Positions 17,834-61,072 of a stretch of DNA of 64,000 nucleotides are shown piece by piece (the stretch's first letter is position 1; each line of letters opens with the position of its first letter). This DNA comes from Thermoplasmatales archaeon SW_10_69_26 (GTDB taxonomy: Archaea > Thermoplasmatota > SW-10-69-26), in the NCBI GenBank assembly GCA_003009755.1, contig PXUB01000032.1:65408-129407 (forward strand). The letters are read 5' to 3'. The position numbers and the translations under genes are program-made. The notes beneath the pieces were generated by a model. It made no database searches. It had not been told where the DNA came from and saw nothing but the letters and a program-made list of their open reading frames with translations.

Positions 17834-18258
17834 GACTGCCGGTCTTGTTTTGCTTACGCTCTCGCGCCGGCCTCCCGAGAGGACGAGCCCGGAAGCTCGT
17901 GCGAGGGAGCGTGGCAAAATCGCGGAGCCTGAGGAACGCAACCCTCGGGCGTGATCTCCGGGCACGACAACGAGGGGGCCCGCCTTAGACCGGCGCACCA
18001 GAACATTTCCGGTCCCACGGTCTCCCCCTACAAGCGGTTGGCCAGGAGAAGTTCACCGGATCGAGGGGGAGCGGTCTCCGTGACCCCCCTCACGGCGAGG
18101 CCGCCCTCAGGCCGGTGACGACGCGAGGTCCCCACGTCCGCGGGTTGCAAGCGTTGTCGCCGTCGACCTCGAAAGGCCTGTGGGCCTTCCGTCGTCTCGG
18201 CTCCGCGCTTTCACCGCCTGAGGGCGGCGAGAGCCTAACCCAAGCATCGCCGGCAGTC
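17834..18258. mobile_element. MITE (425 bp) derived from the IS630-family element at 24140-25267, flanked by TA
   Basis: Termini GACTGCCGG...CCGGCAGTC match the IS terminal inverted repeats, flanked by TA at 17832-17833 and 18259-18260. No ORF. Internal sequence is homologous in inverted orientation to the second copy at 41192-41562. Confidence 0.7.
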
Positions 18259-18286
18259 TAGCTTGACGGCCCGGCGGAAGACGCGA

Positions 18287-18975
18287 TCAGCGTCGGCGCA
18301 AGGCGACGGCGCCGGCCACGAGGGCAAGCGGAGCGACCCAGGGACCGAACGGGATGCCGTTGCCGTCCCCGCCGCCGTCCTCGCCACCGTCGGTGGTGCC
18401 GTTGCCGCCGCTGCTGCCCCCGGTCGTCTCGTCGCCATCCGTGGCACCGCCGTCGGTGGTGCCGGCGTCGCTGGAGGCGACCGTGACGGGCAGGCTCGTC
18501 GTTCCCTCGGCGGAGGGGAACTCGCCGTTGCAGCTTCCCTCGGGCGGGCCGTAGTTGCCGCCGGGGAAGGTGCCCGTGACCGTGACCTCGCGGTCGCCGC
18601 CGGAAGCGGTGTTGGCGGCCTGCACGGTGACGGTGGTCTCCTGGGAGTTGTTGTAGCCGCCGGCCGCCGTCCCCGAGTTGTGGATCCCTTGCGTGTCCGA
18701 GAACACGAGCTCGGAGGGATCGGCCAGACCGGTGACGCCGTTCGGGTTGGAGACGCTCACGTTGACCGGGAGCTCCTCGTTCTCGGCGCAACTGAAGTTG
18801 TCACCCGTCAACCGGACCAGCACCGTGACGTCCTTGGACTCGCCCGGCGACAGCTCGCCGGCTTCGTCTTGCGGTTCGAGCTCCACCGAGAAAGAGGGCT
18901 GCTGAGCAGCCGCCAGGCCAGCGATGGCAAGCAGCGCGGCGACCGTCAAAGCCCCGATCGTTCGTGAACCCACGG
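18287..18975 (-). CDS. Secreted Thr/Gly-rich surface protein with PGF-CTERM-like anchor
   Basis: Signal-like (V)GSRTIGALTVAALLAIAGLAAAQQ; C-terminus GIPFGPWVAPLALVAGAVALRRR. Track ORF extends to 19045; a GTG start near 18975 is preferred but uncertain. Confidence 0.55.
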
Positions 18976-19214
18976 AGTCACACCCACGCTGGTGGACGAG
19001 GTTCCGGCCCTTGACGATTGTGGATTCGGCCTCGAACACTCTCACCCACGGGTGTGGTCTGGGCCCCGGCCGACGTCCGGCCCCTCATCCCCCGCAAGGT
19101 CGCCAACCACGACCGTGACGTTGCTCTCTGCGATCGCTCGCGGCCTCGTCCGCCAGCGCCGGGTCAGGCAGCTGCTCGAGGCCCAGGACGATCCCGGCGA
19201 CCTCGAACGCGGCT

Positions 19215-22344: not shown

Positions 22345-22652
22345 CGTGGATAGACCTTCCTCAGTACGTGCCTTAGGCTTGGCGGGTGGTTATACATTTC
22401 CCTCCGAGGGCGCGCAGGCGACCGCTATCCGTGGTAGGACGTGCCTAGGGACGTTCTCGGCGACCGGGAGCCTGGCATGGGTCTCCGGGGCGAGCGCGTT
22501 CGCGGTTCCTGGTGCAAGGGTTATACGGAACCGTCGGGCTCCCAGGCCGCGTGGGTCACGACCAGGTCGACCTCGACACGTTCCTGGAGGAGGGCATCCC
22601 CGAGCCCGCGGACCCGGGCGCGACCGGTGAGCCTTCCTACGTCAGCCACCCG

Positions 22653-24140
22653 ATGGTGGAGCCCGAGACGCTCGAGGAGCGCCCCTACCAGACCGAGCTG
22701 GCCGAGCAGGCCCACGGCCGTCGAACGCTGGTCGTGCTCCCGACCGGGCTCGGCAAGACGATGGTGGCGGCGTTGCTGGCCGCCGAGGTCCTGCAGAACC
22801 GCGAGGGCAAGGTCGTGTTCCTCGCCCCGACCCGGCCGCTGGTCCAACAGCACGAGGAGACCTTCGAGGAGCTGTTGCGCGCCCGGGACCAGGTCGCGCT
22901 CAGCGGCTCGGTCCCCGCCCAGCGTCGGGCCGAGCTCTTCGCGGAGAACCGGGTCATCTTCTCCACGCCCCAGGGCCTGCGCAACGATCTCGAGGCTGGG
23001 CTCGTCGACATCGACGACGTCGGCCTGCTGGTCTTCGACGAGGCCCACCGCGCCGTCGGCGACTACGCCTACGTCGACATCGGGCAACGCTACCGCTACG
23101 CCTGTCCCGAGGGCACCGTCCTCGGTCTCACCGCCTCCCCCGGCGGCGACGAGGAGCGCATCCAGGAGGTCGTCGACAACCTCGGCATCCACGAGATCCT
23201 CAGTCGCGACGCCGAGGACCCCAGCGTCAAGCCCTACGTCAAGGAGACGAAGGTCCGCTGGGTCAAGCTGCAGCTCACGCCTGTGATGGAGGCCGTGCAA
23301 GCCCGGCTGCAGAACGTCGTCGACGAGCGTGCCAAGCCCCTGAAAGAGGCCCGCTACCTCGAGCCCAAGCCCTACGTCTCCCGGACCGACGCGATCGAGG
23401 CCGGCAAGAAGATCCGGGCCGAGCTCGACGACGCCGAGAACAAGGGGCCGCTGTTCGGCATGTTGTTAAACCAGGGCGTCGTCATGCAGGCCCTGCACTG
23501 CCTCGAGCTCGTCGAGACGCAGGGTGTCGAGCCGTTGCAGACGTACCTCGCCCGCCTCATGCAGGACGAGGATCCCTCCCGCAGCGCGGAGGCCTTCGCC
23601 AAGGACCCCCAGGTCACGGACGTCTGGGCCCGCATCCAGGACTGGCCCCACCCCAGCCATCCCAAGATCGAGGCCTTGATCGAGACGTTGACCCGCGAGC
23701 TGGCCGACAACCCCGATGGCCTCGTCATCGTGTTCGCCCAGTACCGGGACACGATCAACTCGATCCTCGAAGCCCTCGAGGACGAGGGCATCGACGCCGA
23801 GAAGTTCGTCGGCCAGTCCGACCGCGACGGCGACGAGGGCATGAGTCAGGACGAGCAAAAGGAGGTGCTCGACCGCATGCGCGCCGGCGAGTTCCGCGTG
23901 CTCGTCGCCTCCAGCGTCGCCGAGGAGGGGCTGGACATCCCCAGCGTGGACCTCGTCGTGTTCTACGAGCCCGTGCCCAGCGAGATCCGGCTCATCCAGC
24001 GCCGCGGCCGCACCGGCCGCCAAAGCGTGGGCCGCATGGTCGTCCTCATCACCGAGGACACCCGCGACGAAGCCTTCATGCACGCCGCCATGAGCCGGGA
24101 GAAGAAGATGCGCCGCCTGGTCAAGGATCTGGGCGACTAG
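22653..24140 (+). CDS. Hef/FANCM-family DEAH-box helicase (helicase domains only)
   Basis: RPYQTELAEQA...LVVLPTGLGKTMVAALLAAE..., DEAH box FDEAHRAVGDYAY and helicase C (QRRGRTGRQ). Start at ATG 22653 by alignment to Hef N-termini; track ORF begins 22512. Confidence 0.75.
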   Translation: MVEPETLEERPYQTELAEQAHGRRTLVVLPTGLGKTMVAALLAAEVLQNREGKVVFLAPTRPLVQQHEETFEELLRARDQVALSGSVPAQRRAELFAENRVIFSTPQGLRNDLEAGLVDIDDVGLLVFDEAHRAVGDYAYVDIGQRYRYACPEGTVLGLTASPGGDEERIQEVVDNLGIHEILSRDAEDPSVKPYVKETKVRWVKLQLTPVMEAVQARLQNVVDERAKPLKEARYLEPKPYVSRTDAIEAGKKIRAELDDAENKGPLFGMLLNQGVVMQALHCLELVETQGVEPLQTYLARLMQDEDPSRSAEAFAKDPQVTDVWARIQDWPHPSHPKIEALIETLTRELADNPDGLVIVFAQYRDTINSILEALEDEGIDAEKFVGQSDRDGDEGMSQDEQKEVLDRMRAGEFRVLVASSVAEEGLDIPSVDLVVFYEPVPSEIRLIQRRGRTGRQSVGRMVVLITEDTRDEAFMHAAMSREKKMRRLVKDLGD

Positions 24141-24155
24141 ACTGCCGGACAGAAT

Positions 24156-24683
24156 GTGCGTAACTTATCGTGGCGTCCGATACTAACTCAAATAGGGGTG
24201 GGATGCCCTGTCAGCCTTGACGCTGACCCCGACCAAAAGGAACAACGACGCCTCGCCGCAGGCCAAGATCTACTGGACGGCAAACGCCAAGCCGACATCG
24301 CCGAAGGCTACGGCGCCACCCGCACCACCGCCCACCGCTGGGCGCACACCGTCGGAACCGAAGGCCTCGACGGCCTGAAAAGCACACGCACCAACGCCGG
24401 ACGACCCCCGAAACTCGACGCCGAGAACAAACAACGCCTCGCCGAACTTCTCCAACGAGGCGCCCAAGCCCACGGCTGGGACACCGATCTGTGGACCCGC
24501 AAACGTGTGGCCCAGCTGATCGACCGGGCGTTCGACGTCGACTACTCTCCCCGACACTGCTCGCGGATTCTGCACGAGATCGGGTTCCGCCCGGTCAAAC
24601 CCAAGCGCGTGGCCAACGAAAAGGACGAGGCCGAAAAACAGCGCTGGCTGGCCGAGGAGGCTGGAGAGCTGAAAAAAACCTAG
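24156..24683 (+). CDS. IS630-family transposase, N-terminal HTH part (orfA)
   Basis: Helix-turn-helix DNA-binding region ...GKRQADIAEGYGATRTTAHRWAH...; ends at TAG just after GCTGAAAAAAACC. Confidence 0.8.
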   Translation: MRNLSWRPILTQIGVGCPVSLDADPDQKEQRRLAAGQDLLDGKRQADIAEGYGATRTTAHRWAHTVGTEGLDGLKSTRTNAGRPPKLDAENKQRLAELLQRGAQAHGWDTDLWTRKRVAQLIDRAFDVDYSPRHCSRILHEIGFRPVKPKRVANEKDEAEKQRWLAEEAGELKKT

Positions 24684-25255
24684 CCGACGGTGCAACCGTC
24701 CTGTTCCCGGACGAGAGCACCTACCGCTTCACCCCCGTCCGCCAGCGCGGCTGGGCGCCCTACGGACAGCGACCGACCGTCGAGCACACCTACGGGGACT
24801 GGTGGACGGTGAGCGCGATCAGCGCCTTGGCGATCTGGATCGAGCCCGATGGCTCGTTAGGCACGAAGGTCTTCTTCCGGTTGTACCCGAAGGAGAGCGT
24901 GAACAGTCGACACCTCCGGGATTTCCTGCACCAGGTTCGCTACCAGCGCGAGGGCGAGATCAGCGTGGTGTGGGATCGCGCCAGCCATCACCGCGCCCGG
25001 CGGGTGCAGCGGTTCTTCGCTTCCTACGAGCGGTTCAGCTCGGTGTTGTTGCCGGCATATTGTCCAGAGTTGAACTCGGACGAGGGGGTGTGGAATTGGT
25101 CGAAGACCAAGGATCTGGCCAACGCCTGTCCGAAGGATGTGGATGCCCTGGTGTCGGGGGTTCGAGGGCCCTTGCGTCGGCTCCAGCATCGACCGAGTGC
25201 GCAGTGGTGGTGTGTGCACGACTCCGAGTTCCCGATCGAAGAGTTACTCACATAA
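24683..25255 (+). CDS. IS630-family transposase, DDE catalytic part (orfB, expressed by -1 frameshift at the A7 run 24672-24678)
   Basis: Frame continuing from the A7 run reads ...DESTYRFTPVRQRGWAPYGQRP...VVWDRASHHRARRVQRF...LLPAYCPELNSDEGVWNW... (DDE motif block of IS630/Tc1). Confidence 0.75.
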   Translation, partial: ADGATVLFPDESTYRFTPVRQRGWAPYGQRPTVEHTYGDWWTVSAISALAIWIEPDGSLGTKVFFRLYPKESVNSRHLRDFLHQVRYQREGEISVVWDRASHHRARRVQRFFASYERFSSVLLPAYCPELNSDEGVWNWSKTKDLANACPKDVDALVSGVRGPLRRLQHRPSAQWWCVHDSEFPIEELLT

Positions 25256-25266
25256 TGACCGGCAGT

Positions 25267-27048
25267 CTAACCGCTTTCGGTGGCGACCGAGAGGTCGCGG
25301 TCGAGCATCGCCCCCCACACCCCCCGCGGTGTCCGGCTGCAATCCGTGCACGCGAGATCGGGATCCTCGTACCGGTCACCGGTCCCGTCCCCGTCGACCA
25401 GCAACCCGTTCTCGCCGTTCCAGTCACCGTGCATGCAGGGGTCATCGCAGGCGAGGTCCTCCCCCACGGCGGCCCGGTAGGCGTCCACGCCCCCGAGGTC
25501 CACCAGCGAGGACCCCCAGCCGGCGGTCGCTCCACCGTTGGTCCCCCAAACGCCCGGGTAGGTCTCGCAGCGGGCTTGGCACAGCGCGTGGACGTCGACG
25601 CCGGCCTCGTAGACGTCATCGCCGCCGGCGTCCACCAGGCGTCCGACACCGAGGTGCCCTCCCCCGTTGGCCCCATGCCCTCCGGCGATGCTCAGGCATC
25701 GGCTGAGATGGGAGGCGTCGCCCAGACACTCGGTCGTGGCGTTCGTCCCGGCCTGGTACACGTCGTCGCCGTCCGAGGAGACGAGACTGCCCGAGCCGGA
25801 ATAGCCGCCGCCGTTCACGCCTAGGCCTCCGGCCACCGCCGAGCACTTGGACCCCTCGCAGGTGACCGATGCGTTGACGCCGGCGAGGAACGCGTCCTCG
25901 CCCCCGCCGTCGATCAGCGAACCAACGCCGACGTGGGCGCCGCCGTTGACGCCTGCGCTGCCGGCGCGGGCCACACAGAACTCCGCCTCGCACCGCTCCT
26001 CCGCCTCGTGCCCGGCGAGGTAGCGGTCGGTTCCCTCGCCTGCGTCGACGAGTAAGCCGATCCCGTTGTCCGCTCCGCCGTTGACGCCGCGTGCGTTCGC
26101 GTGGTAGGTGTCGTTGCCGGTGGCGTCCACGAGCACGCCCGTGCCCTCGAACCCGCCGCCGTTGACGCCACAGCACCGCGGATCGCTTGGCTGGCCGTAC
26201 GTGTCGTCGCCGCCGAGGTCCACGACCGCCGCGGCGGGGAACGTTGCGCCGGTGCCGCCGGCGTTGTTCTCGTACTCGTCGTCGCCTCCGAAGCTCACGA
26301 TGAGCGCGCAGTCGTTCGCAAACGTGCGGCTCTCGTCACTGGTGTCGAGGGCGACGGCAGGGCATGCGTCGACGGCCGGACGAGCCGCGGAGGTCGAAGA
26401 TTCCGCTACCATGGCCAAGTTCTCCACCGCATTCAGGAAAGCGGACCGAGCGGCGAAGACGTCGGCGAGTTCGCCGCCCTCGACGTGGGGGAAGGGATCG
26501 AGGCCCCCGTCGAAACCAGGAACCGCCCCCGTCCCGGCAGCTGGTGAAAGGCGAGCAGGGGAGGCTTGGTCGTCGGTGAGCTTTTTGGCCACGCTGGTAT
26601 CCGACACGGCCTCGAGCCGGAGGAACGTCGTGACGAGGTCGGCAAGCGCGTCCGCGAGACCCGGGGACCGTTGCTCGACGATCTGGGCGGCGAGGCGATC
26701 CCCGAGGTCGAGGATCGTCGCGTGGCGGTGGGTCAGGGATTCGAGGGCCGCGAACAAGGACGACGCCGAGCCCGTTGTCGGAGGTTCGTCCGACGGGATG
26801 CCGAGATCCCCGCTCTGCTGACGAGCCACGGCCTCGGCCACGTCCAGCGATGCAACAGCTGGAATCTCATCTTCGGTATCCGACGCGCCCTCGTCCGCGA
26901 TCCCGGCTCCGTGGGCGTCGCTCACCCTTTCCGGAACGAGGGTACCGGCCGCACTCGCCGCGGGAGCGAGGATCATCACAACAGCGAGGGCGACCGAAAC
27001 GCCCCTCAGCCGCCGAGCACGTTGGCCGAAAGAGAGGATATCCGTCAC
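25267..27048 (-). CDS. Secreted beta-solenoid repeat protein with about eight ~30-aa GVNGG repeats
   Basis: Signal peptide ...VSVALAVVMILAPAASAAG; repeats of form GVNGGxxxGxGxLVDxxGxDxYxAG; many Cys pairs; stop codon overlaps the TA target of the IS630 element. Confidence 0.65.
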   Translation of the reverse strand: MTDILSFGQRARRLRGVSVALAVVMILAPAASAAGTLVPERVSDAHGAGIADEGASDTEDEIPAVASLDVAEAVARQQSGDLGIPSDEPPTTGSASSLFAALESLTHRHATILDLGDRLAAQIVEQRSPGLADALADLVTTFLRLEAVSDTSVAKKLTDDQASPARLSPAAGTGAVPGFDGGLDPFPHVEGGELADVFAARSAFLNAVENLAMVAESSTSAARPAVDACPAVALDTSDESRTFANDCALIVSFGGDDEYENNAGGTGATFPAAAVVDLGGDDTYGQPSDPRCCGVNGGGFEGTGVLVDATGNDTYHANARGVNGGADNGIGLLVDAGEGTDRYLAGHEAEERCEAEFCVARAGSAGVNGGAHVGVGSLIDGGGEDAFLAGVNASVTCEGSKCSAVAGGLGVNGGGYSGSGSLVSSDGDDVYQAGTNATTECLGDASHLSRCLSIAGGHGANGGGHLGVGRLVDAGGDDVYEAGVDVHALCQARCETYPGVWGTNGGATAGWGSSLVDLGGVDAYRAAVGEDLACDDPCMHGDWNGENGLLVDGDGTGDRYEDPDLACTDCSRTPRGVWGAMLDRDLSVATESG

Positions 27049-27319
27049 GTCACCCAGCCTCGTTGCGGTGGTTGGGATGCAGCCCTTTCAAGGCTTCGTT
27101 GTCACAGCCCGAGGGGGAATCGCGTGCCGTCATCGAATGCGCTGGCGCACCCGCCATCCGGGCAGGGACGGTTCCGGGACGGCGTGTCCGCCGCCGACCA
27201 AGGCCGGGACAGCGGGGGCGATCATCAACAGGCCAACCAGGACGGCGCGGACCCTGACGAACATCGAGCAAGAAGGCTTAGCCGGACCCTATCAGGGTTC
27301 TCCGAGTGCGCCTAAACCG

Positions 27320-28705
27320 TCACTCTTCTCGTCCCTCGCCGCCGGGCACGTCCTCGGGCCCGATACCCAACAACCGCGGCAATGGATCGAACAGCGCCCG
27401 CTCAACCGTCGCCTGATCCACGGCCGCCTCCGAGGAACTACGCGTCCCGTTGTCCCGATGATCGTTGACCCCGTAGACACGGTACTCGTCATCCCCCGTG
27501 AGCTCGAAGCTCGTCCGCCAGGACGTCACACTCGGGTCCAGGTGCGCCACGGGTTGCCACGGGCTCGGGGCCTCGAACGTCGCGTTGGACCGGCGTTCGA
27601 CCACGTACCCCGTCAACACCGAATACGAGGTGGGTTTGGGCGGATCCCACGTGACCTCCGTGCTGAACGCATCGCCCTCGCGAACCGGTTCGACATCCAA
27701 ATCTCGGGGCGCGTTCGGCTCCAACGAGTAATGCACGATCTCCGCCAAATCCCCCCGCTCGAACGCCTGGGACCCGCCAAGCAGGATCGCTTGCCGGCCG
27801 GTCCACACGGCGGTCGCCTGGTCACGACCCGTGGGCAACCGGCTATCCATGAACCGGATCTCCTCCTCCCCCGGATCGACCCGCAGGATCGAGGCCTTGC
27901 TCACCCCGTCGTTGATCCCCCCAAGCACGAACGCGTGATGCCCATCCCACACGGCGCTCGGGGCCCGCAACGAAACGTTGAGCTTCACGTCCTGCAACTG
28001 AAGGGTGTCTGTATCGGGGTCGAAGCGCCAGATATCATCGCACTCGCCCGGGCAGCCAGTCCCCCCGAACAGGTAGGCCTCCTCGCCCGTCCACACCGAC
28101 GCCATCCTTTCACGCGGACCGGGGAAGCTCTCCTCCAGCTTCGTTACCGTATCGTTCACCGGATCATAGCGCAAAATCTGGTCCAGGGGAGTGAACGCGT
28201 CCCGGCCACCGAAGATGTAGGCGCGATCGCCGGTCCAGACCGTCGTCGCATCTATCGGATCGTTCGGTAGCGTGGCGTTCATTTCCTCGACCGTGTCCGT
28301 GGACGGGTCATACCGGGTCACGGTGTCCGTCCAGAACACGTACGCACAACCCTCGGGACAGCCTGCCTCCGGCCGCGAGCGATCATCCCACACCGCGGTC
28401 GCACTCGATCCCGTCCAGGGCAACCGGGCATCCATCACCGTCGCGTTGCCCGTATCCGGTTCGTAGCGAACGATCTCGTCACTGAAATCGCTGGACCCAC
28501 CAGTCCGGTTCAAACCCCCGAACACGTACACCGCCTCTCCCGTCCACACGGACGACGGGTTCTTCAACCCCTGCGGCAACTCGGCTTCGACGCTGGCCGT
28601 GTCCGCGCTCGCCGACGGCGCGATGAGGGCGACCACGGCCACGGCAGCCAACAAACCGACGCCGCCAGCGATCCAGGCACCTCCCATCGGTTCTCCCTCG
28701 AACAT
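27320..28705 (-). CDS. Secreted Kelch-repeat beta-propeller protein with C-terminal fibronectin-III-like domain
   Basis: Start chosen at MFEGEPMGGAWIAGGVGLLAAVAVVALIAPSASA; six Kelch-like repeats (VWTGxxAYVFGG pattern); C-terminal FN3-like ...PRDLDVEPVREGDAFSTEVTWDPP...YRVYGVND... Confidence 0.7.
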   Translation of the reverse strand: MFEGEPMGGAWIAGGVGLLAAVAVVALIAPSASADTASVEAELPQGLKNPSSVWTGEAVYVFGGLNRTGGSSDFSDEIVRYEPDTGNATVMDARLPWTGSSATAVWDDRSRPEAGCPEGCAYVFWTDTVTRYDPSTDTVEEMNATLPNDPIDATTVWTGDRAYIFGGRDAFTPLDQILRYDPVNDTVTKLEESFPGPRERMASVWTGEEAYLFGGTGCPGECDDIWRFDPDTDTLQLQDVKLNVSLRAPSAVWDGHHAFVLGGINDGVSKASILRVDPGEEEIRFMDSRLPTGRDQATAVWTGRQAILLGGSQAFERGDLAEIVHYSLEPNAPRDLDVEPVREGDAFSTEVTWDPPKPTSYSVLTGYVVERRSNATFEAPSPWQPVAHLDPSVTSWRTSFELTGDDEYRVYGVNDHRDNGTRSSSEAAVDQATVERALFDPLPRLLGIGPEDVPGGEGREE

Positions 28706-28855
28706 CGGCCAGGAGCCGCATAGACCCCCGCCTGTCACGTCCAATCGTAACACCGCCCTTGGCCAAAGGCATTCTCCAAGCGCGTGTGAACCGTCATCGA
28801 AGCCAAACCAAGCCCGAAGACAACTTATCACCAACTCAATTGGTCAATCGGGCTT

Positions 28856-29960
28856 GCACATAAACTCAGTTCTGACCTGACCGAGCGTCCCATCAATCCA
28901 ACAACCGAACGTTGTGCACGATCTCCCGCGCCAACACCGTGTTCCGCCGACTGGTCCGCAGCCGGCAGCGGAGACGATCGCCGAACAGCAGCTTGACCGT
29001 GGCAAACCGGGACTCCGCGGTCACCCGGCGACGGTACACGTCCTGAAACCGATTGGGGAAGTTGAGCGCGTATCGGGTCTTCTTCTCGAACGGATCGGAA
29101 GGGAACCGCCACCAGCGAGCGTTGCTCTTCGGCTTGAAGTAGGGCTGCAACCCGGCGTCTTTGACGAGCTGGCAGTTGTCCCGGGTCCAATACGCCTTGT
29201 CGCCCAACACGGCGTGGACGGCTGCTTCGTCAGGCACCTCGTCGATCAGCTCGGGCAGCTCTTGGCTGTCGTGCCGGTGCCCGGGCGTCAACGAGACAGC
29301 CAACGTGGCCCGGGTCTTGACGCCGTTGAGCACGTGCGTTTTGGCGTACTGGCGAGGCTCAGCGTCGTGTTCTCGCGCATGCCAGGCACCTTGTCCGGTG
29401 AGCACGAGACCCGAGGCATCCACGCTGGCGTTCTCTTCGAGGCTCCAGAAGGGCTGAGCGGTCTCCGCCAGCACTCGCTGAAGCGTGTTCGTGATCCCCG
29501 TTCTTGGTTGTACTGGCACAGCGTGTTGAAATGGGGCACGTGCTCGATGTCCAGATGGGGCTTGAGCAGGTAAAGCAGGCCTTCGGTGCGGCGGAAGCTG
29601 AGATCGAAGTACGCCCGGACCAGCAAGCCCAAGATGACGGTGCGGCGCGGGATCCGGGGCCGGCCGGTGTTGTAGGACCAGTTGTGGATGCAGCTGGCAT
29701 CCACGAGGTCTCGGAGACGGTGCACCACGCGCACCATCTCGCGGGCTTGCCACGTGTTGTATGTGCTCCAGTCGAAGCCGTTGTCGGTGGGTTCAAGCGT
29801 GTGCTGTTCTTCTGTTGTCACTCGGGCATCCATCCCAGCTCGATGGCTCTCGAGCGGGCTTCTCAGGGATGCCCCGTTTTGTCAACGGCAGTGGTTTGTA
29901 TCGCGTCAGCTGGGCTCGTAGCCCACTTTATGTGCGAGCCCCGGCCGAAGGCTGAGTTTC
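28856..29960 (-). mobile_element. IS4/IS5-superfamily insertion sequence, ends approximate
   Basis: DDE_Tnp_1-type transposase between short matching termini (left GCACATAAACTCAG at 28856-28869; right carries TTTATGTGC at 29926-29934 and CTGAGTTT at 29952-29959). The exact ends could not be resolved by eye. Confidence 0.55.
28893..29833 (-). pseudogene. IS4/IS5-superfamily DDE transposase split over two frames (frameshift near 29530-29600)
   Basis: N-terminal frame MDARVTTEEQHTLEPTDNGFDWSTYNTWQAREMVRVVHRL... ends about 29530. The C-terminal frame carries ...GDKAYWTRDNCQLVKDAGLQPYF...VYRRRVTAESRFATVKLLFG... (DDE and YRRR/ExxF signature). Confidence 0.7.
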
Positions 29961-30588
29961 AGGGATCGAACCCGACGGTGTAGCCCTTCTGTTCCAAGAT
30001 CTCCATCGCTTCGCTGGCGAGTTCTCGAGCCTCTTGCTCGTTTGGGACACCGTCGGCAAGCTGGGCATCCCATTCTTCTTGGACGCGCTCCCAGGAGATC
30101 AGGCCTTGGTCGAGAAGCGTCTGGAGATCCTCGATGTCGCGGTCGGGGGTATCCCGCCAGCGGCCGGTCACGCTCTTGAGCAAGAACACGGCGTTGGCTG
30201 GGGCTAGCTCGACGGTCAGGTTGCCCTCGGTGAACCACTCGTCTGTTGCCTCCGCCATGCGCTGGGAGAACTGCAGGCAACCGAAGATCCGTCCGGGCGG
30301 GAACAGATCCATGCTCATCACGTTCTCGCGCTCGCAGTAGATCCACATGTCGAAGGAATCGGTTAGCGGGATCTCCTCGGCCGGCTGGTAACCCACCCGA
30401 CCTAGCTCTTCGATGAGGGTGTGGATGGCCCGGTCGTGGTCGACGACGGCGTCCACGTCCTTGGTGGTGTCCTTGATGCCGCGGGCACTCATGCAGCAGC
30501 CGCCGAAGAGGATGAACCGCGTCGGTGCCTGGATGACCTCGCCGATCCGTTCGAGCTCGGTGCGGATCGTGGCGCGGTCAACGGGCAA
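29959..30588 (-). CDS. Polymerase-beta-superfamily nucleotidyltransferase (AbiEii-like motif), 209 aa
   Basis: NTase signature FILFGGCCMSARGIKDTTKDVDAVVD (hGG...G...T.DhDhhh) followed by a ~100-aa helical C-terminal extension; start overlaps the upstream wHTH gene by 11 bp; stop sits in the IS right end. Confidence 0.65.
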   Translation of the reverse strand: MPVDRATIRTELERIGEVIQAPTRFILFGGCCMSARGIKDTTKDVDAVVDHDRAIHTLIEELGRVGYQPAEEIPLTDSFDMWIYCERENVMSMDLFPPGRIFGCLQFSQRMAEATDEWFTEGNLTVELAPANAVFLLKSVTGRWRDTPDRDIEDLQTLLDQGLISWERVQEEWDAQLADGVPNEQEARELASEAMEILEQKGYTVGFDP

Positions 30589-31597
30589 GGCTGCCCTCCT
30601 CGACGCCGAAGTCCTCTCGGAACCGCTGGATCTCCTCCTCGAGGGGGTGCTCTCCGGTTTCGACGAACACCTTGGCTTCGTCCAAGAGCCCGCCGAGCTG
30701 GTAGAAGAACGCGCGATCGAAGAAGCTCTCGTGTCGGAGCAAGCGGTGGTCCACTGCAGCCAGGAAGAACGCCTTGGCTCTCAGGGCAACATCGTCGGCG
30801 CTGGAACCGGATGGATCCCGGCGGGGGGTTGCCTGGGCACGACAGTAGAGGAACATGTGATCCCAGGGGTCGAGCTCTCGGGGGCCCAGGTAGCCGTAGG
30901 TTGCCTCGCTCGCAATCGGGGAGAAGAGATCCAGATCCGAGGATGGACCCACGAGTTGGATCGGTGGTTCGAGATCGGCGTTGTTGAAGCGCCAGGCCAC
31001 CTCGAGGCCGCGCTGGTGGATGGGATGGTGAGCGAAGACTGCAGCTCGAACCGGGCCTTCCTGTTCTTCCAGCCCTCCCGGGTGGACCGCCTCGCTGGGC
31101 GGTCGGCGGTAGAGGTCGGCGTACTCCTCGATGAGCCATTGCAAACCGCTCAGGCGCGGGTTCGGTTCGAGGCCGCCCTCCGAGGAGAGCAGGAGGTTGC
31201 GGGAGCGCAGGTGGTCGATGGCGTCCTGCCAGGTCGACTTGTGGACGCCGACCAACTCGCGGGCGTCGGGATCACGGTGAGGATAGGGGAAGACGGTGAG
31301 CGCGGCCAAGTGGGTGGGTGCGGAGAGCTCATCCTCGAGGTTGGGTCGCTCGCTGAGGGCGTCCGCACATGCACTCGCCAGGTCGGCGTGGCGGGCGGTG
31401 AAGGTACGGTTGCGTTTGGCTCTCGATGCTTCCAGCAGGTTCAGCTCCTCGAGCTTGCGTACCCGCCGGTCGAGCGTCGACCGGGGGAGGAACTCGAGGT
31501 CCCGCAGCTGGAACCCGTCCGGGTCCGCTGCGGCGAGGATCCGGAGATCGCGGCCGTCGAGTGAGAAACGAACGGGGTTTCGCTTATCACTTGTCAC
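30578..31597 (-). CDS. Winged-helix DNA-binding protein with extended C-terminal domain (AbiEi-like partner of the nucleotidyltransferase)
   Basis: N-terminal wHTH ...LRILAAADPDGFQLRDLEFLPRSTLDRRVRKLEELNLLEA..., then a second predicted wH (...VHKSTWQDAIDHLRSRNLLL...) and a ~150-aa C-terminal domain; 3' end overlaps the NTase start. Confidence 0.6.
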   Translation of the reverse strand: MTSDKRNPVRFSLDGRDLRILAAADPDGFQLRDLEFLPRSTLDRRVRKLEELNLLEASRAKRNRTFTARHADLASACADALSERPNLEDELSAPTHLAALTVFPYPHRDPDARELVGVHKSTWQDAIDHLRSRNLLLSSEGGLEPNPRLSGLQWLIEEYADLYRRPPSEAVHPGGLEEQEGPVRAAVFAHHPIHQRGLEVAWRFNNADLEPPIQLVGPSSDLDLFSPIASEATYGYLGPRELDPWDHMFLYCRAQATPRRDPSGSSADDVALRAKAFFLAAVDHRLLRHESFFDRAFFYQLGGLLDEAKVFVETGEHPLEEEIQRFREDFGVEEGSLAR

Positions 31598-31856
31598 CGG
31601 TTGTTTCCAATCTCGATCAAAGACACTTAAGAGTTCCTCTGATTGGGTGCTTCACAAACGGGTTCACAGACGGTACCGGGAGAGGCGAGGTTCGCCTTTG
31701 GCGACACGCATCGGCGTAGTTCTCTGGATCTGCTTGCAGACGAAGCGGAGACAAGGTGAGTCCCACCTGCATCGTCGAGTAGCTCACGGCACGTAGCCGC
31801 ACCCGGCCTGGCTGGGGAAGAACGACATCTGCGATCCTGGGGGGAATCTTGGAGTC

Positions 31857-34800
31857 TCACGGTTCTGCGGCGTCCGCGGGCTCGGTCAACCACGGCAGGA
31901 TGTGGGCGCGACCGATGACGTCGTCGCAACCCGGGCTCGATGGACCCTGGGCACAACCCCACCAGTTCCGCCTCGCTTCGCCGCCCCCGACGAACCCGGC
32001 CTTCTCATTGCCAGCGATGTTGGAGTTCACTGCCTCCAGGTCGGAACCTCTTGCGTCGACGCCGACCGTGTTGTTGGAGATCTGCATGTGCTGCAGCTCG
32101 GGCTCCAGGATGCTCTGGTCGTTCTCGACCCCGGTAGCGAAACCTTCCACCTTGGTCTCGGTTACGGTGGTCAGCGTGGTTCCGGGGAGCGCGATCCCCG
32201 TTCGCCCGGTCCCGGAGACGACGGTCCCGTGGATCGAGGAGGAGTCCTGGAAGATGATCCCTGTGACGCCTTCGTAGACGATCCCCTGGCGAGCGTCGTC
32301 GATGTGGCTGTTCGAGACATCGATGTTGACCGTAGCCGCCGCTCGGAGGCCGACCTCTCCCTCTTTCACGGTGACGTTAGAGATCGACACGTGTTGGCCG
32401 CCGAGGACCTGGACGCCGACCCCGGTTTCCTCCAGCTCGATGTCCTCGACGATCGTGCGGTTGGTGTTCGCCAGGATGACCTGCCCTGGTGGGACTGGTT
32501 CGCCCTTGGACGTCGTCGGTGGCGGCACGAGGTTCCCGTCGCTGTCGCACCACACCTGTGGGATCACGGCATCTTGGGCGTCTTGACAGAAGAGGACGGG
32601 ACGGTCGTTGACGGTGTTGGCCCGCGTGATCGCCACGTCCGGGACATTCCAGCTGTCCGGCTCGAAGAAGATTCCCCCCTTCGTCATCGCGTTCGCGTCG
32701 ATCCTCGCTTGCTCGACGTCCTGGATCGCGATCGCCTTGGGGAACCCGTCGATGCCGTTCACCGCGATGGTGACGTTGTGGCTCCGTTCTGCTTGGAGTC
32801 CTCCGTCCTCGACCACGGGATACAGGGGGCTGTCAGATTCGTCCGCTGTTCGGTGGATCTCGTTTCCGCGGACGAGGACGTCCTCGGTTCGCTCCAGGGA
32901 CAGCCCTGTCCGTTGAGCCCGGAGGACGTTGTCCTCGACGTGGGCAGCGTCGACGTTCTCGAGGGCTACGGCGGTGCGGCCCTCGAGGTTGGTTCCCTCG
33001 AGGCGGACGTCCTGGCTGTCGACGATCTGGATGGGTACAGCTCCATCCTCGATCTGGAGCCCCCTCACGGTGACGTTCTCGGTACCTTCGAGCACGACCT
33101 GACCGTAACCGGGACGGACGGTTCGGTTGTCCTCGCCGGCCAGGTAGGCGACGGGGCGTCCGCGGACCGTGTTGGAGCGGTCGATATCGTGACCGTTCTC
33201 CGCATGCCCCCAGAGACCGTCCTCGATGCGGAACCCGGCGTCGGTAAGGCGGTTCCGTTGAAGTTGGAGCTGGTCCCCGTCGAGCATGATCCCGGTCTCG
33301 TTCGCCTCGACCGTGTTCTCTCGGACGGCGTACTGCTCGCCGCCGAGAAGCATCCCGACGTGGGAACCATCGACCAAGTTGTCGACGGCGCGACTCCGTT
33401 CGCCCGCGAGGAGCACGATCCCGTGAGTGCCTCCCTGGACGGAGGTGTTCGCGACCGTGACGTTGCGGCCAACGGCTAGGACGCCGCCCAGGGGATCCCC
33501 TTCCCCGGGCATGCGAACATCAGCACTGCGGATAGAGCCCCGCTGGTCCGGGGCGTCGCCAGCGACGCCTACGGCTGGTTGAAGGACACCGCCGATACCG
33601 TGCAGGAGGCGGATCCCGAGATCCGAGACGTTGATCTCGACATTCACGAACTCCACGCCATCACCGCCGATGGCGCTCAGGCCTCGCCAACCGCCGGTGA
33701 CGCTGACGTTGCGGACGGTCACGTTGTCGGTTTTGAAGGTCTGCACGCCGACCGTGGTGGGGCCGAGCTCGCGGTTCTCGATGACGGTGTCCGAGACGTT
33801 GACGAGGATGATCTGGCCGGCTGGCCCCTCCGGGCTCGCCGAGCTTGTGTCGGTGACGTAGCGGATGGGATCGCCGTTGACGGTGTTCGAGGGAGGGATC
33901 TCGTGGGACCCCGCCGAGCGGTACCCCTCGAGATGGACACCGGTTTCCTGGAACTCGTTCCGGTAGAGCGAGGCGTTGTCCGCCGAGGAGAGCCGAAGCC
34001 CGACGTCGGCGCCGCGGAGCCGGTTGTCCTTCAAGACGATCCCGTCGGACGAGGTGTGAATCCCGACCTCGGTCGCCTCGATCGTGTTGTTGTGGATTTT
34101 GGGGGTGTCCGTCCCCCGCAGCTGGATCCCGTGACGGGCCTCGAGGATTTTGTTCCGACTCAAGGACGTACCGGGAGAGGGCCAGACGAGGTCCACCCCC
34201 TGGTCGACGTTCTCGATGGTGTTCCCCTCGGCCTTCATTGTGGCGTCCCTCGCTCTCAACCCGACCGACCAGTTGACCAGCTGGTTCGCCTCGAACACCG
34301 CGGTTGCACCAACGGCGACACTGAGGGCTGTCCCCGAGGGGAACCCACGGTCGGGGGGAGAACGGCCCAAGAGCGTGTTGTTCTTGGCCACGAGCGTGGC
34401 GGAGCCTCCAGCAGCGAGGCCGTCTTCCTTCCACCCCGGGCGGATCTCGGTGCCGGTCACGATCGCTTCGCTGGCTCCGATGGAGATGGGGCCGTCGACC
34501 CGGCTTCGAGTGACGTTGAGCGAGGAGTCCGTGGTGACGATAGCTCCTTCCGCCTTCACGGCTGTCAGGTTCACCGAGGCCTGTGTTGCGGTGATGCCCG
34601 CAGAGAACGAGCCGGCCACGCTGTCGAGGGAGGCGTTGGTGACGGAGACCGAGGTCCGCGTCCGCTCGTCGGTCCATCCGTCGAGGACGATGCTGCCGCC
34701 GCCGTGAACGCGCAGGCCCTCGTGGGCGTCGCCCACCTTGTTGTCGGTGAGCTCGGCGGAGGCGTCCGTTTCGAGAGCGGTACGGGCGGAGCGGATCTGG

Positions 34801-35810
34801 TTCTGAGTGAACGCTCGGATCTCCGAGTCGAGGATGCGGAATCCGTCGGGGCCGGGGCGGTGGGGAAGCGGCGTTCCGACAAGGTTGGCCTGGACGTCCA
34901 GTCCGTTGATGCGTTGGAGGTCCATGGCCACGGCTGGGTCCTCGCCGTAGCAACACAGGGTGGTCGGGTAGGACACCGTGTTCGCTTCGATTATCACGTT
35001 CGAAGCGTTCGTGACCGAGAGGGCCTGGAAGCTCCGCTCGAACCTGTTGTCGGCGACGTGGAGGTGATCGCTTCCTTCTGCCTCCAGGCTAGGCGGTGGT
35101 GGCGTATCACGAGCGGCGAAGTCGTCGACGGACCCTGGCAGGGGGGAAAACGCCATCTCGTCCTGGGGGAGGATACGGTTATCCTGGATCGTGATGTTCG
35201 TGGCGTTGGCGAGGAACACCGTCGTCGGTCGGGCCTTGCGGCCGGCATCCTCGGGTGAAGGTTCGCCGCCGATGCGATTGTCTTGGAGGACGACGTGGGC
35301 GTCCGTGTCCTCGACCCTGATGCTCGTCACGTTCCAGCCCGCGATCAGATAGGGATCCTCGGAGGTGCCCTCGCCGTCGACCACGCCCGAGCCAGGCCGG
35401 TAGGTGGATTCCCCGGTGAGCGGTTCGCGGAGCTCGAATCCCTGTCGAGGCTGGTCGCCATCGATTGTGATGGGTGGATGATGGGGTCGCTGGGCGTGAT
35501 CAACGGGCTTAGTTCCTGCTTCGTCCGCGCCGAGGCTGGAGGGACAGCGTGCGGGAGGCTCGCATCGGTTGAAGGTGTGGGCCGAGGCGGGCTCCTCTCT
35601 GGGGAGAGCCTCGAAGTTGGGGGATGGTTGGGTGTCGATGCGGTCCTCCGTGTGGAGGATGCCACGTTCTGCTTGATCGAGGGTGGGAAAGCCCGCTGCC
35701 GCGTTCTGTAGGAAGAGACCGAAGGCGAGGAGGGCCCCCATGCAGGCGAGCGAAGCGGGGATCGGTCGTGTACGCCTGGGGAAACACATGGCCACGGGCG
35801 GCTGGCTCAC
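31857..35810 (-). CDS. Giant secreted right-handed parallel beta-helix (PbH1/NosD-like) repeat protein, 1317 aa
   Basis: Signal peptide ...MGALLAFGLFLQNAAAG; dozens of ~22-aa repeats of the pattern NxIxxNxxxGIxL / VxNNTIxxxxxG across the whole length; acidic C-terminus. Confidence 0.75.
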   Translation of the reverse strand: MSQPPVAMCFPRRTRPIPASLACMGALLAFGLFLQNAAAGFPTLDQAERGILHTEDRIDTQPSPNFEALPREEPASAHTFNRCEPPARCPSSLGADEAGTKPVDHAQRPHHPPITIDGDQPRQGFELREPLTGESTYRPGSGVVDGEGTSEDPYLIAGWNVTSIRVEDTDAHVVLQDNRIGGEPSPEDAGRKARPTTVFLANATNITIQDNRILPQDEMAFSPLPGSVDDFAARDTPPPPSLEAEGSDHLHVADNRFERSFQALSVTNASNVIIEANTVSYPTTLCCYGEDPAVAMDLQRINGLDVQANLVGTPLPHRPGPDGFRILDSEIRAFTQNQIRSARTALETDASAELTDNKVGDAHEGLRVHGGGSIVLDGWTDERTRTSVSVTNASLDSVAGSFSAGITATQASVNLTAVKAEGAIVTTDSSLNVTRSRVDGPISIGASEAIVTGTEIRPGWKEDGLAAGGSATLVAKNNTLLGRSPPDRGFPSGTALSVAVGATAVFEANQLVNWSVGLRARDATMKAEGNTIENVDQGVDLVWPSPGTSLSRNKILEARHGIQLRGTDTPKIHNNTIEATEVGIHTSSDGIVLKDNRLRGADVGLRLSSADNASLYRNEFQETGVHLEGYRSAGSHEIPPSNTVNGDPIRYVTDTSSASPEGPAGQIILVNVSDTVIENRELGPTTVGVQTFKTDNVTVRNVSVTGGWRGLSAIGGDGVEFVNVEINVSDLGIRLLHGIGGVLQPAVGVAGDAPDQRGSIRSADVRMPGEGDPLGGVLAVGRNVTVANTSVQGGTHGIVLLAGERSRAVDNLVDGSHVGMLLGGEQYAVRENTVEANETGIMLDGDQLQLQRNRLTDAGFRIEDGLWGHAENGHDIDRSNTVRGRPVAYLAGEDNRTVRPGYGQVVLEGTENVTVRGLQIEDGAVPIQIVDSQDVRLEGTNLEGRTAVALENVDAAHVEDNVLRAQRTGLSLERTEDVLVRGNEIHRTADESDSPLYPVVEDGGLQAERSHNVTIAVNGIDGFPKAIAIQDVEQARIDANAMTKGGIFFEPDSWNVPDVAITRANTVNDRPVLFCQDAQDAVIPQVWCDSDGNLVPPPTTSKGEPVPPGQVILANTNRTIVEDIELEETGVGVQVLGGQHVSISNVTVKEGEVGLRAAATVNIDVSNSHIDDARQGIVYEGVTGIIFQDSSSIHGTVVSGTGRTGIALPGTTLTTVTETKVEGFATGVENDQSILEPELQHMQISNNTVGVDARGSDLEAVNSNIAGNEKAGFVGGGEARRNWWGCAQGPSSPGCDDVIGRAHILPWLTEPADAAEP

Positions 35811-36049
35811 GGTTCCGCCTCCGAGTCGGGCTCGGCCAACCCTGATTCGACCAAGACGTTCCCCTCGATACCGTCTCCGCTGGTCGAGAGACCGTTCACG
35901 GAGGCCAGCCCTGTGCTGGGAACCGGAATCAGGGTGATGGCAACGGTGAGCGTCAGGCTGCGCAGCTCCTCCTGCCTCGGACGTCCAATCGTGACAGCCG
36001 ACTCAAAAGCGTGTGGATAGAACCGAAGGGGTAGAACCGGCTCGGACAC
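35807..36049 (-). CDS. Hypothetical small protein (80 aa) overlapping the start of the giant beta-helix gene by 4 bp
   Basis: ORF MSEPVLPLRFYPHAFESAVTIGRPRQEEL...AEPDSEAEP; ATGA overlap suggests coupling but there is no recognisable domain. Confidence 0.25.
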   Translation of the reverse strand: MSEPVLPLRFYPHAFESAVTIGRPRQEELRSLTLTVAITLIPVPSTGLASVNGLSTSGDGIEGNVLVESGLAEPDSEAEP

Positions 36050-36119
36050 CGTACGACGGTCGCCGACGGTATGCGAGAGGTCGGCTGCCCTCGCCCTCCT
36101 CCAGCGGGTGTTACACCAG

Positions 36120-37345
36120 CCTAGTGCTTCTCAGCTTGTGTCAGTAGTACCGGGCCACTCCGAACTGAACTCACATCCCGGGGTTCTGTAGCTGTCTCAG
36201 CCAGACGGAGCCCATTTGGTCTTCAAGGCCTCTAGCGGCTATCTCCGGCCCCTTCATCGCTTCAGCCGTCACGATCGCTTCGAGCGACAAAAGTCCGTGG
36301 TGGAGGGCCTTGTTGTCGCTAGTTCCTCTCCCAACTGAGAGACGTTTAGAACCTCGCCCACACCCCTCCACCGCCCGTCTCCCTGGGCATGACCGATGAG
36401 TTGCCCAGCCTGACCGAATTCGTCAACACCCACCCCACCGAAGACGACTGCCGGCAATACTCCGCGAGAAACGCTGGGGCGAGGACGGCTTTGAATGCCT
36501 ACACTGCGGAGAAGACGAACACTGGGGCTTCATCGAAACGCGCCACCTGTTCCAGTGCCACGAGTGCGGCAAGCAAACCAGTGTGACCGCGGGCACGATC
36601 CTGCAGGACACCAAGCTCGACCTGCAGACCTGGTTTTTGGCGATCTACCACGTCATCAAAACCAAGAAGGGCATCACGGAGCCCGAGCTCGCCCGCACGC
36701 TCGGCGTGCACGCGGAGACCGCGCACAACATCCGCCAGAAGATCTACCGCATCCTGAGACGCGCGCAACACCGGCCGTTAACCGGCGTGGTCGAGGCCGA
36801 TGAAACCTACGTCGGCGGCAAGCGCCCCGACGATCCCAGCGGCCGGGGCACCACGAAACAGTGCGTGGTCGCCCTCGTCGAGAACAAAGACGAGGAAGCC
36901 GGCAACCTGCACCTGCAATGCGTGCCCGGCGCCGGCGGCGAGAACCTGGCCCCCACCGTGCGAGCCCGCGTGCAGGAAGGCTCGATGTTGTGGACGGACA
37001 ACGGGGACGGCTACAACGGGCTTGCGGCCTACGAGCGCGAGGTTCGCCAACCCGACGACGATCAGGAGATGCACGACGTGCTGCCGTGGAGTCACCGGTG
37101 TTCAGCAACCTCAAACGCGTGCTGTACGGGGTGCACGCCTACGTGGAGAACTGGAACGTGCAGCCGTACTTGGACGCGTTCACGTTCCGCTTCAACCACC
37201 GCCCGTTCCTCGGCAAGGCCCTCGAGAAGGCCTTGCAAGGCATCGTTGAGACTCTTCCTCGACCGAACGATCGGCTCAAACGATCCGGGCAGCTGGGGGC
37301 AGCGGCGTAGAGGGGGTTACTGAGACACCCCGAGAAGCACTTAGC
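36120..37345 (+). mobile_element. IS1595-family insertion sequence (about 1.2 kb)
   Basis: Terminal IRs CTAGTGCTTCTCAGCTTGTGTCAGTAGTACC (36120-) and the reverse complement of ...GGTTACTGAGACACCCCGAGAAGCACTTAG (-37345); encloses an IS1595-type transposase. Confidence 0.6.
36389..37310 (+). pseudogene. IS1595-family transposase with two frameshifts (near 36465 and 37085)
   Basis: Zn-ribbon region RWGEDGFECLHCGEDEHWGFIETRHLFQCHECGKQTSVTAGTILQDTKL... and the C-terminal signature ...FSNLKRVLYGVHAYVENWNVQPYLDAFTFRFNHR... are found in three different frames. Confidence 0.7.
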
Positions 37346-38324: not shown

Positions 38325-40493
<2,169 letters not shown>

Positions 40494-40640: not shown

Positions 40641-40641
40641 A

Positions 40642-40820: not shown

Positions 40821-41192
40821 ATGGATCGTCGCCGGGGCCTCGTGGCCCTCGGCGTCGGCCTCGTCGTGTCGTTGGCCGTCGTCTGGGCCTTCTTCGCCAC
40901 GCTGCTCCCGTTTGCGGGGCCCAGCACTGGTCATCCGTGGCGAGGCGGCGTCCCGTTCGTCGCCGTCGTCTTCGCCGGCTTCGGTCTCGCCCGGCGGATC
41001 GAGGGATCCGGGCGGCGGATCGGCGTCCTCGTGGGGCTCCCGGGCGCTGCGATCGGCGGCGTGCTGGGCGTGCTCGCCGCCCTGCGCAGGGCCCACCTGC
41101 TCGCTGTTGCAGGCCTCGTCGTCGTCTACCTGGCGTCGGCGAGCCTCGGGGGCTGGCTCGGGGGTCGGCGCGGGATGGTGGCCGGCCGCTAG
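40821..41192 (+). CDS. Hypothetical small membrane protein (123 aa, about 4 TM)
   Basis: MDRRRGLVALGVGLVVSLAVVWAFFATLLPFAG...; the TAG stop is formed by the TA target plus the first G of the MITE. Confidence 0.4.
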   Translation: MDRRRGLVALGVGLVVSLAVVWAFFATLLPFAGPSTGHPWRGGVPFVAVVFAGFGLARRIEGSGRRIGVLVGLPGAAIGGVLGVLAALRRAHLLAVAGLVVVYLASASLGGWLGGRRGMVAGR

Positions 41193-41562
41193 ACTGCCGG
41201 CTGTGCTTGGGTTAAGCTCTCGCTCGGCCTCAGGCGGTGAAAGCGCGGAGCCGAGACGAAGGAGTAGCCGGAGGCTACTTCGATGTCGGAGACCGTGGGA
41301 CCGGAAATGTTCTGGTGCGCCGGTCTGAGGCGGGCAATCTCGTTGTCGCCCCCTGAGATCTCGCCCGTCCGAGCGATCTCAGGCACGCCCGGATCTCTGA
41401 TCCGGGCAGTGTCCGTCGAAAACCCACAGGGGGTTTCCTTCCTCGGGCTCCGCGACCTTGCCTCGCTCCCTCGCACGAGCCCTCCGGGCTCGTACTCTCG
41501 GCAGACCGTGCCCGGTCTCCCGAGACCGGCGCGAGAGCTTAAGCAAAACACGTCCGGCAGTT
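41192..41562. mobile_element. MITE (371 bp) of the same IS630-derived family as 17834-18258, in inverted orientation, flanked by TA
   Basis: Left end TA-GACTGCCGGCTGTGCTTGGGTTAAGCTCTCGC... is the reverse complement of the right end of the first MITE; the right end ...CGTCCGGCAGTT-TA is degenerate; no ORF. Confidence 0.7.
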
Positions 41563-42137
41563 TAGTCCTTCTTGTACGGCGGCTCGGTCATCGCTTCCTC
41601 GGTCCCGTTGGCAGCATCCGAGCTGGTGATCTCCTTCAGCCTGCGGATGCCGTCGACCTCGCCGACGATGCGAGCCACGGGATCAGGTACCAGATCCTTC
41701 CAAGTCTGCCTGTCCTGATGCATGAGCTGGCGGATTTGGGTCGCCTCGTAGCGCTCGCGGTCGACGAGATCGAACTCCCGGACCTCGTAGCCGGCCTCGT
41801 GGAACAACCGCTTCGGCAGCGGGTTGTTCATGTAGCAGACGTCGAAGGGCGGGCAGAACGTCTCGACGTGGCTCACCCACAGCGAGTTGCGGTGGATGTC
41901 CGGCACCGGGATGATCGTCGCGTGGATGTCTCGCTCGACGAGGCTCTCGTCCAGCATCCACACCCGCTCGCCGGCCGTGAACGGATTCTCCTTCGTGTGC
42001 GAGTACTGGCTGGAGCCGACCACGATCACCAGGCGGTCCACGTCGGCCACGATCTCCTCGATCACGGAGAGGTGGCCAAGGTGGGGCGGCTGGAACCGAC
42101 CCAGGAACATGCCACGCGTGGGCATCAAGCCGGTCAA
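41562..42137 (-). CDS. nadM: Nicotinamide-nucleotide adenylyltransferase (archaeal NadM)
   Basis: MTGLMPTRGMFLGRFQPPHLGHLSVIEEI... carries the (H/T)xGH nucleotidyltransferase motif and the NadM family pattern; stop codon overlaps the MITE TA flank. Confidence 0.85.
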   Translation of the reverse strand: MTGLMPTRGMFLGRFQPPHLGHLSVIEEIVADVDRLVIVVGSSQYSHTKENPFTAGERVWMLDESLVERDIHATIIPVPDIHRNSLWVSHVETFCPPFDVCYMNNPLPKRLFHEAGYEVREFDLVDRERYEATQIRQLMHQDRQTWKDLVPDPVARIVGEVDGIRRLKEITSSDAANGTEEAMTEPPYKKD

Positions 42138-61033: not shown

Positions 61034-61072
61034 AACGACGAGGCTGCCTGACGCCGCTGGTCGGCACCACCG

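Follow-up and report, generated by a model that had tools for sequence, protein, structure and literature searches.

The 64,000-nucleotide stretch of Thermoplasmatales archaeon SW_10_69_26 analysed here (contig PXUB01000032.1, positions 65,408 to 129,407 of the forward strand; below, the window) carries a previously undescribed member of the IS630 family of insertion sequences (IS), together with a pair of miniature inverted-repeat transposable elements (MITE1 and MITE2), in a metagenome-assembled genome (MAG) of an uncultured halophilic lineage of Thermoplasmatota. The IS and MITE2 both sit in the TA dinucleotides of the stop codons of facing genes. This placement is neat but ordinary, and is largely explained by target taste and selection. 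The IS probably inserted by the usual IS630-type cut-and-paste reaction into the TA of a CTAG-like site, its landing in stop codons following from the known target specificity of the family and from selection. Coordinates of all features are given in Table 1.

Results

An IS630-family element with a two-frame transposase

Assignment of the element to the IS630 family with TA flanks, as made in the initial annotation, agrees with matches to Pfam DDE_3 and helix-turn-helix (HTH) domains, with the NCBIfam IS630 model and with the TA dinucleotides at 24138-39 and 25268-69. The outermost 30 nt of the two ends form imperfect terminal inverted repeats (TIRs; Table 1), a pattern for which 0.02 chance matches are expected in the window, and the TIRs bound an element whose length falls within the ~1.0-1.4 kb of the family. 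Joined at the A7 run, the two open reading frames (ORFs) ORFA and ORFB give a fused transposase of 352 aa that scores 202.7 bits against the NCBIfam model NF033545 transpos_IS630 (cutoff 100); the match of the reading frames to Pfam DDE_3 has E = 1.8e-22. The fused protein has D172, D260 and E296, the last two separated by 35 residues (DD35E spacing), and its own stop is an internal TAA at 25253-25255.

In the relatives P0121 and P0122 a single uninterrupted frame crosses the point of the A7 run, and the A8 fusion aligns with relatives. Judged from the frames, two readings of the run fit equally well: it may be a site of programmed slippage, or a frameshift mutation may have made a pseudogene (A8 to A7). 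Both frameshifting and transcriptional realignment are known from the IS630 family (PMC5009743). Expression of an IS630-family transposase of Roseiflexus needs slippage on a homopolymer run, by transcriptional realignment (PMC5009743); by analogy, the run at 24672-24678 would act as that slippage run does.

Annotated IS630-family transposases match in tblastn at 34-37% identity, mostly in two pieces. The best database protein in the searched collections reaches 54% identity over part of the length, so that this transposase of an uncultured halophilic Thermoplasmatota lineage has no close relative there; a single-protein search of GTDB genomes found no transposase relatives. The IS is apparently present as a single copy: two independent assemblies pass straight through it, and ORFA is on record only at the 24140-25267 site, a look-up of ORFA returning that site only. 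The window and the reassemblies of SRR6651951 agree at 99.8-100% identity.

Table 1. Features of the IS630-family element, the MITEs, their neighbouring genes and the variable island.
Feature	Coordinates	Strand	Description
IS630-family IS	24140..25267	+	1,128 bp; ends GACTGCCGG...CCGGCAGTC; from direct reading of the sequence, TIRs and domains
Left TA, target duplication	24138..24139		Bases 1-2 of the helicase stop TAG (24138-24140)
Right TA	25268..25269		Minus-strand bases 1-2 of the TAG stop of the repeat-protein gene
Left TIR, GACTGCCGGACAGAATGTGCGTAACTTATC	24140..24169	+	24/30 identical to the right end
Right TIR, reverse complement GACTGCCGGTCATTATGTGAGTAACTCTTC	25238..25267	-	Compared with the left end
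Transposase ORFA, DNA-binding part	24156..24683	+	HTH_33, HTH_32, HTH_29, HTH_23, HTH_28
Transposase ORFB, catalytic DDE_3 part	24677..25255 (DDE_3 reading frame 24491-25255)	+	Pfam domain match
A7 run at the ORFA/ORFB overlap	24672..24678	+	A8 or a -1 shift would fuse the frames into ELKKNLADG...
Hef/FANCM-like helicase gene, without nuclease domain	22512..24140	+	Likely start 22551, giving 529 aa as in PSG96848.1
Secreted repeat protein, putative beta-solenoid	25267..27048	-	593-aa ORF; GxNGG repeats; no Pfam hit
MITE1	17834..18258		425 bp; TA at 17832-33 and 18259-60; intergenic
MITE2	41192..41562		371 bp; IS-like termini; TA at 41190-91 and 41563-64, inside the ORF123 and nadM stops
ORF123, small hydrophobic protein gene	40821..41192	+	Ends CGC TAG; 97% identical, with the same end, in empty-site contig L008
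nadM, nicotinamide-nucleotide adenylyltransferase	41562..42125	-	Ends GAC TAA (target TA plus last MITE base)
Strain-specific variable island	24141..37067		~13 kb; left edge is the IS; from comparison with relatives
DDE_Tnp_1 (IS4/IS5-like) transposase gene	28893-29471		In the island
ISXO2/IS1595-like transposase gene	36583-37320		In the island; L001 rejoins the window inside this gene

The junctions of the IS lie in stop codons

As the initial annotation had it, the left TA and the first base of the IS make up the stop of the helicase gene (the plus-strand ORF ends GAC TAG, the G being IS base 1), and the right TA and the complement of the last IS base make up the stop of the convergent repeat-protein gene (the minus-strand ORF ends GGT TAG). 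Its arithmetic is also correct; removal of the IS and one TA leaves GAC TAA CCG on the plus strand and GGT TAG on the minus strand. The coding signal is strong in both flanking ORFs, with a GC content at third codon positions of 0.94 (helicase) and 0.83 (repeat protein). The helicase protein is identical to PSG96848.1 when its start is placed at 22551, a position taken from cluster members; the longest-ORF start found no exact protein match, nor did that of nadM.

TA followed by G occurs at every junction of this IS/MITE family and gives TAG in one frame, with the result that some ORF is always listed as ending there. Whether a true gene ends at the junction can be told only by comparing relatives; in annotation, genes that end exactly at IS or MITE junctions need such a comparison. 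Relatives verify real gene ends for the helicase, nadM and ORF123. In contigs L001, L002 and L005 the helicase ends at the same residue (...LGD* in the window, L001 and L005), with a native TAG within CTAG at the exact position of the left TA. The view that the insertion spared both genes holds for the helicase, which has the same last residue in these three contigs; for the repeat protein only the distant homologue P0355 (599 aa) suggests a similar end: it aligns nearly end to end (query to 487/496, subject 597/599), to within 9 residues of the C-terminus. For the repeat protein (P0260) a look-up gave no record.

It seems most improbable that the stop of the repeat-protein gene was created by the insertion, the IS having landed in a Tyr codon (TAY) that was in frame close to the 3' end, so that its terminal G produced a premature TAG and a truncated protein. 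In favour of this, a TAG arises in one frame at every junction, and the gene is without a close homologue that would fix its native end, the matches found being only itself and hits to the repeat region at <=50% identity. Against this, the end of P0355 is only a few residues away from that point and the other three junction genes are verified as intact.

Empty sites of the two MITEs

Both MITEs are short elements without a transposase that have shared ends, a TA duplication and multiple copies. They are without similarity to the interior of the IS and have their 9-bp termini (GACTGCCGG) in common with it; only the outer 9-11 nt match the ends of the IS, and the inner parts of the repeats differ. 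The MITEs would be mobilized by this transposase or a related one.

The stop-codon geometry of the IS recurs at MITE2, as first pointed out in the initial annotation, both TA flanks being part of the stop codons of ORF123 and nadM. The predicted empty site of MITE2 is present in three contigs of related populations, L007, L008 and L009, as GGCCGCTAGTCC, with a single CTAG; these contigs read ...GGCCGCTAGTCCTTC... and the convergent TAGs of ORF123 and nadM share their TA. With or without MITE2, nadM ends ...PPYKKD* and ORF123 ends ...MVAGR*. MITE2 is thus a clean case, verified by empty sites, of a transposon inside two overlapping stop codons with both proteins unchanged. The nadM stop is TAA rather than TAG because the right terminal base of MITE2 (41562) is T instead of the C of the family; this terminal C to T change still leaves nadM a stop codon. 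On the two sides of the shared stop site divergence is uneven, ORF123 being 97% identical to its L008 counterpart and the adjacent nadM only 89% identical to P0140 (the L008 nadM), which may reflect recombination.

MITE1 follows the TGA stop of gene 18287..19045 at a distance of 27 nt and precedes the thiolase start, at 17803, by 29 nt. Its empty site is found in L005 (98% nt identity), which reads ...GGTCCTTAGCTTGAC... with a single TTAG. Comparison of filled with empty sites shows that the TA duplication is precise for both MITEs. For the MITEs, a duplication of 3 bp (TAG) was weighed as an alternative and rejected, as the flanks of the IS are TAG and TAA and the family duplicates TA. ORF 18258..18791, which would end at the MITE1 junction, was likewise discarded as a gene; its coding score is negative and the real gene, 18287..19045, ends in TGA.

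Additional MITE copies are found at contig ends in L002, L010, L011, L014 and L015. Contigs of related populations stop inside MITE copies (L002 8720-8773; L010 5893; L011 5286; L014 3285; L015 2324; L006 2739), so the MITE is a multi-copy element that breaks assemblies, in contrast to the IS, which was assembled through. Scans of genome and metagenome contig collections with the MITE-end pattern and the conserved MITE core gave no matches; since L002 does hold the MITE-end pattern, the scanned contig collections are without these populations.

Target preference and selection as the probable basis of the stop-codon landings

The insertion census comprises five independent events with eight sequenced half-sites, TA sites being counted on the window with the elements removed. 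The base before TA is a pyrimidine in all eight half-sites (6 C, 2 T), against a background of 0.37-0.41 (p ~4e-4 to 9e-4), and the target is therefore YTAR (Y, pyrimidine; R, purine), like the CTAG of IS630. This CTAG-like preference has p < 0.001 relative to the window background in a small sample of 5 events.

The element is best read as a cut-and-paste IS of the IS630/Tc1-mariner type; one frame of its transposase codes for the HTH part and the other for the DD35E part, and the two would be joined at the A7 run. Like IS630 itself, and by analogy with ISY100 (PMC2170065), it would insert into the TA of a four-base target resembling CTAG (YTAR in this case), with duplication of that TA. YTAR has a TAA or TAG triplet on both strands, which gives it the form of two antiparallel stops with a common TA, and the duplicated TA plus the terminal G of the element rebuilds TAG on each side, so that insertion into a TAR stop changes no protein. 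The window has a GC content of 68%; in such a gene-dense genome TA is scarce and lies mostly inside genes, for which reason surviving copies would be those in intergenic spacers or TAR stops, selection presumably acting as the filter. GC-rich, gene-dense genomes would then have few neutral targets, stop codons being one kind of these and, where convergent genes abut, the sole tolerated target.

The 588 TA sites of the window divide into 455 in coding sequences (CDS), 123 intergenic and 10 in stops, and the 43 YTAR sites into 17, 22 and 4, respectively; stop TAs make up 7.5% of the non-disruptive TA sites. Two of the five independent insertions are at stops (the IS and MITE2) and three are intergenic (MITE1, L002:8720 and L010:5893), two of these three just upstream of gene starts. 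Taking all non-disruptive TA sites as the null, insertions at stops give p = 0.015 for the window (2/3) and p = 0.049 for all events (2/5). With non-disruptive YTAR sites as the null the values are p = 0.052 (2/3) and p = 0.17 (2/5), and under this, the appropriate null, the stop-codon excess is not significant. The case was chosen post hoc, for its striking look.

The initial annotation saw in these positions a landing strategy. That view is not supported by the census, in which three of five insertions are intergenic and the excess at stops is no longer significant after YTAR preference and the loss of gene-disrupting insertions are allowed for. We regard it as unlikely that the family evolved to seek stop codons, especially the TA shared by convergent stops, as a neutral safe haven, with its G termini a TAG-restoring adaptation. 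The proportions at stops in the window and overall, when set against all non-disruptive TA sites, would favour such stop-seeking, as would the exact preservation of host proteins in both stop-codon cases. It is countered by the p values of 0.052 (window) and 0.17 (five events) for a case picked after the fact, by the intergenic majority of the insertions with two just upstream of gene starts, and by the age of CTAG targeting, which is old in relatives of IS630 and found across genomes of many compositions. A related proposal, to which we attach equally little probability, is that the YTAR target and the invariant terminal G are a co-adapted pair for colonizing the shared stops of convergent genes in compact, TA-poor archaeal genomes; if so, stop codons would be over-used relative to other non-coding YTAR sites and neither protein would be changed.

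The site of the IS and the variable island

No empty site of the IS was found in the helicase-bearing relatives L001, L005 and L002 (97.5%, 98% and 80% nt identity, respectively). Their homology to the window ceases exactly at 24140, the first base of the IS, and the DNA downstream is unrelated to the right flank in the window. A distant relative, L016, was also searched and is uninformative, its helicase ending in TGA and overlapping an unrelated convergent gene. The initial annotation had further proposed that the helicase and beta-solenoid genes overlapped at CTAA/TTAG before the insertion. The predicted IS-free abutment would read ...GACTAACCGC..., with the junction ...GGCGACTAACCGCTTTCGG; this junction occurs in none of the relatives and their homology stops at 24140, so the proposed overlap finds no confirmation.

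To the right of the helicase lies the variable island, of which the IS forms the left edge (Table 1). It contains genes for surface proteins (Kelch/fn3, Beta_helix/NosD) and for transposases of the IS4/5-like and IS1595-like kinds, and has a lower GC content. L001 rejoins the window only at ~37068 (37068-37155), inside the ISXO2/IS1595-like gene. The island ends near a tRNA-His gene whose orientation is inverted relative to the relatives: tRNA-His (37473-37545) is on the helicase strand in the window and on the opposite strand in L002 (8539-8611), L016 (8846-8918) and L017 (8211-8283), which points to a local inversion within the variable helicase-to-gyrB interval.

One might suppose, though we hold it to be the less probable history, that a rearrangement breakpoint lies at the IS. 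In that case its flanks would never have been adjacent; each would derive from a separate insertion into a stop TA, and the two would have become joined through recombination between IS copies, or through an intramolecular transposition by which the 13-kb island came in or was reshuffled. The end of homology at 24140 in L001, L005 and L002, none of which has the repeat-protein gene beside the helicase, fits this, as does the base after the TA, which is G in the relatives (CTA-G) but A in the right flank of the window. So do the lower GC of the island, its two other transposase genes and the orientation of tRNA-His, opposite to that in L002, L016 and L017. TA flanks every insertion of this family, and the TA pair of the IS is consequently uninformative, unable to prove that the flanks were once adjacent. 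On the other hand, all relatives diverge from one another in the DNA past the helicase (L001 and L005 do so after ~30 nt), and L016 has a different convergent gene that overlaps the end of its helicase, so that the locus is hypervariable regardless of this IS; moreover, the IS is apparently a single copy, assembled through twice and with ORFA on record only here. We favour a simple insertion as the probable history of this IS copy, with a rearrangement associated with the IS as a serious alternative.

Several points weigh against that reading as a full account. No empty site was found for the IS, so that simple insertion between genes that already abutted is presumed. As the MITE repeats diverge from those of the IS in their inner parts, another transposase related to this one may be what moves the MITEs. 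YTAR occupancy is 2/4 at stops vs 1/22 at intergenic sites, and this borderline value (p = 0.052) is compatible with some extra preference for gene ends. Only five independent insertions underlie the census.

Comparison with known systems

IS630 itself targets the TA in 5'-CTAG-3' and duplicates it (Tenzen and Ohtsubo 1990/1991, as cited in PMC2170065). Like IS630 of Shigella sonnei, the element in the window is ~1.1 kb long and has a DDE transposase with an N-terminal HTH, TIRs and a TA insertion site. Unlike it, the element resides in an archaeal host (the Thermoplasmatota MAG), has a transposase in two frames with ~35% identity to annotated bacterial members, and belongs to a family whose target is relaxed to YTAR (CTAG, CTAA and TTAG are seen) rather than restricted to CTAG.

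ISY100 of Synechocystis moves by cut-and-paste and inserts almost only at TA, which is duplicated, the flanking TA lying outside the element (PMC2170065). It belongs to the same family and its mechanism was shown biochemically; the element in the window, which has different terminal sequences, is assumed by analogy to behave likewise. In IS870 of Agrobacterium vitis and in ISMt1 the stop of the transposase gene is supplied by the CTAG target, according to PMC13630536 and a reference given in PMC6471742. There the target provides the element's own stop, whereas at the IS in the window it is the stops of the host genes that are rebuilt from target TA and terminal G.

Like other bacterial MITEs that target TA, the RUP elements of Streptococcus pneumoniae, associated with IS630-Spn1, are short, non-autonomous, have IS630-family termini and insert at TA (PMC2229807). 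The MITEs described here are archaeal, 371-425 bp long and match their IS over the outer 9-11 nt, and one copy lies inside two overlapping stops. Our literature search found no description of landing in host stop codons as such, which does not show that it is absent from the literature.

Other repeats in the window

A 44-nt segment comprising the 3' end of tRNA-Arg(TCG) (1689-1765) and the sequence downstream recurs perfectly at 1874 and 1988 (region 1689-2110). The tandem units are 114-125 bp long, each with a hairpin, and a partial fourth copy lies near 2103; they may have been left behind by repeated integration at the tRNA, or may represent a small repeat derived from the tRNA end.

A duplicate of the final 108 nt of gyrB (40386-40493) lies 251 nt downstream at 40637-40744, with 88% identity, the two copies being separated by a hairpin-rich spacer of 143 nt. 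This looks like a small insertion that carries a replacement gyrB 3' end. Finally, two tandem paralogous genes at 59222-62854 encode proteins of 603 and 593 aa, with ~70% DNA identity and a spacing of 1,851 nt.

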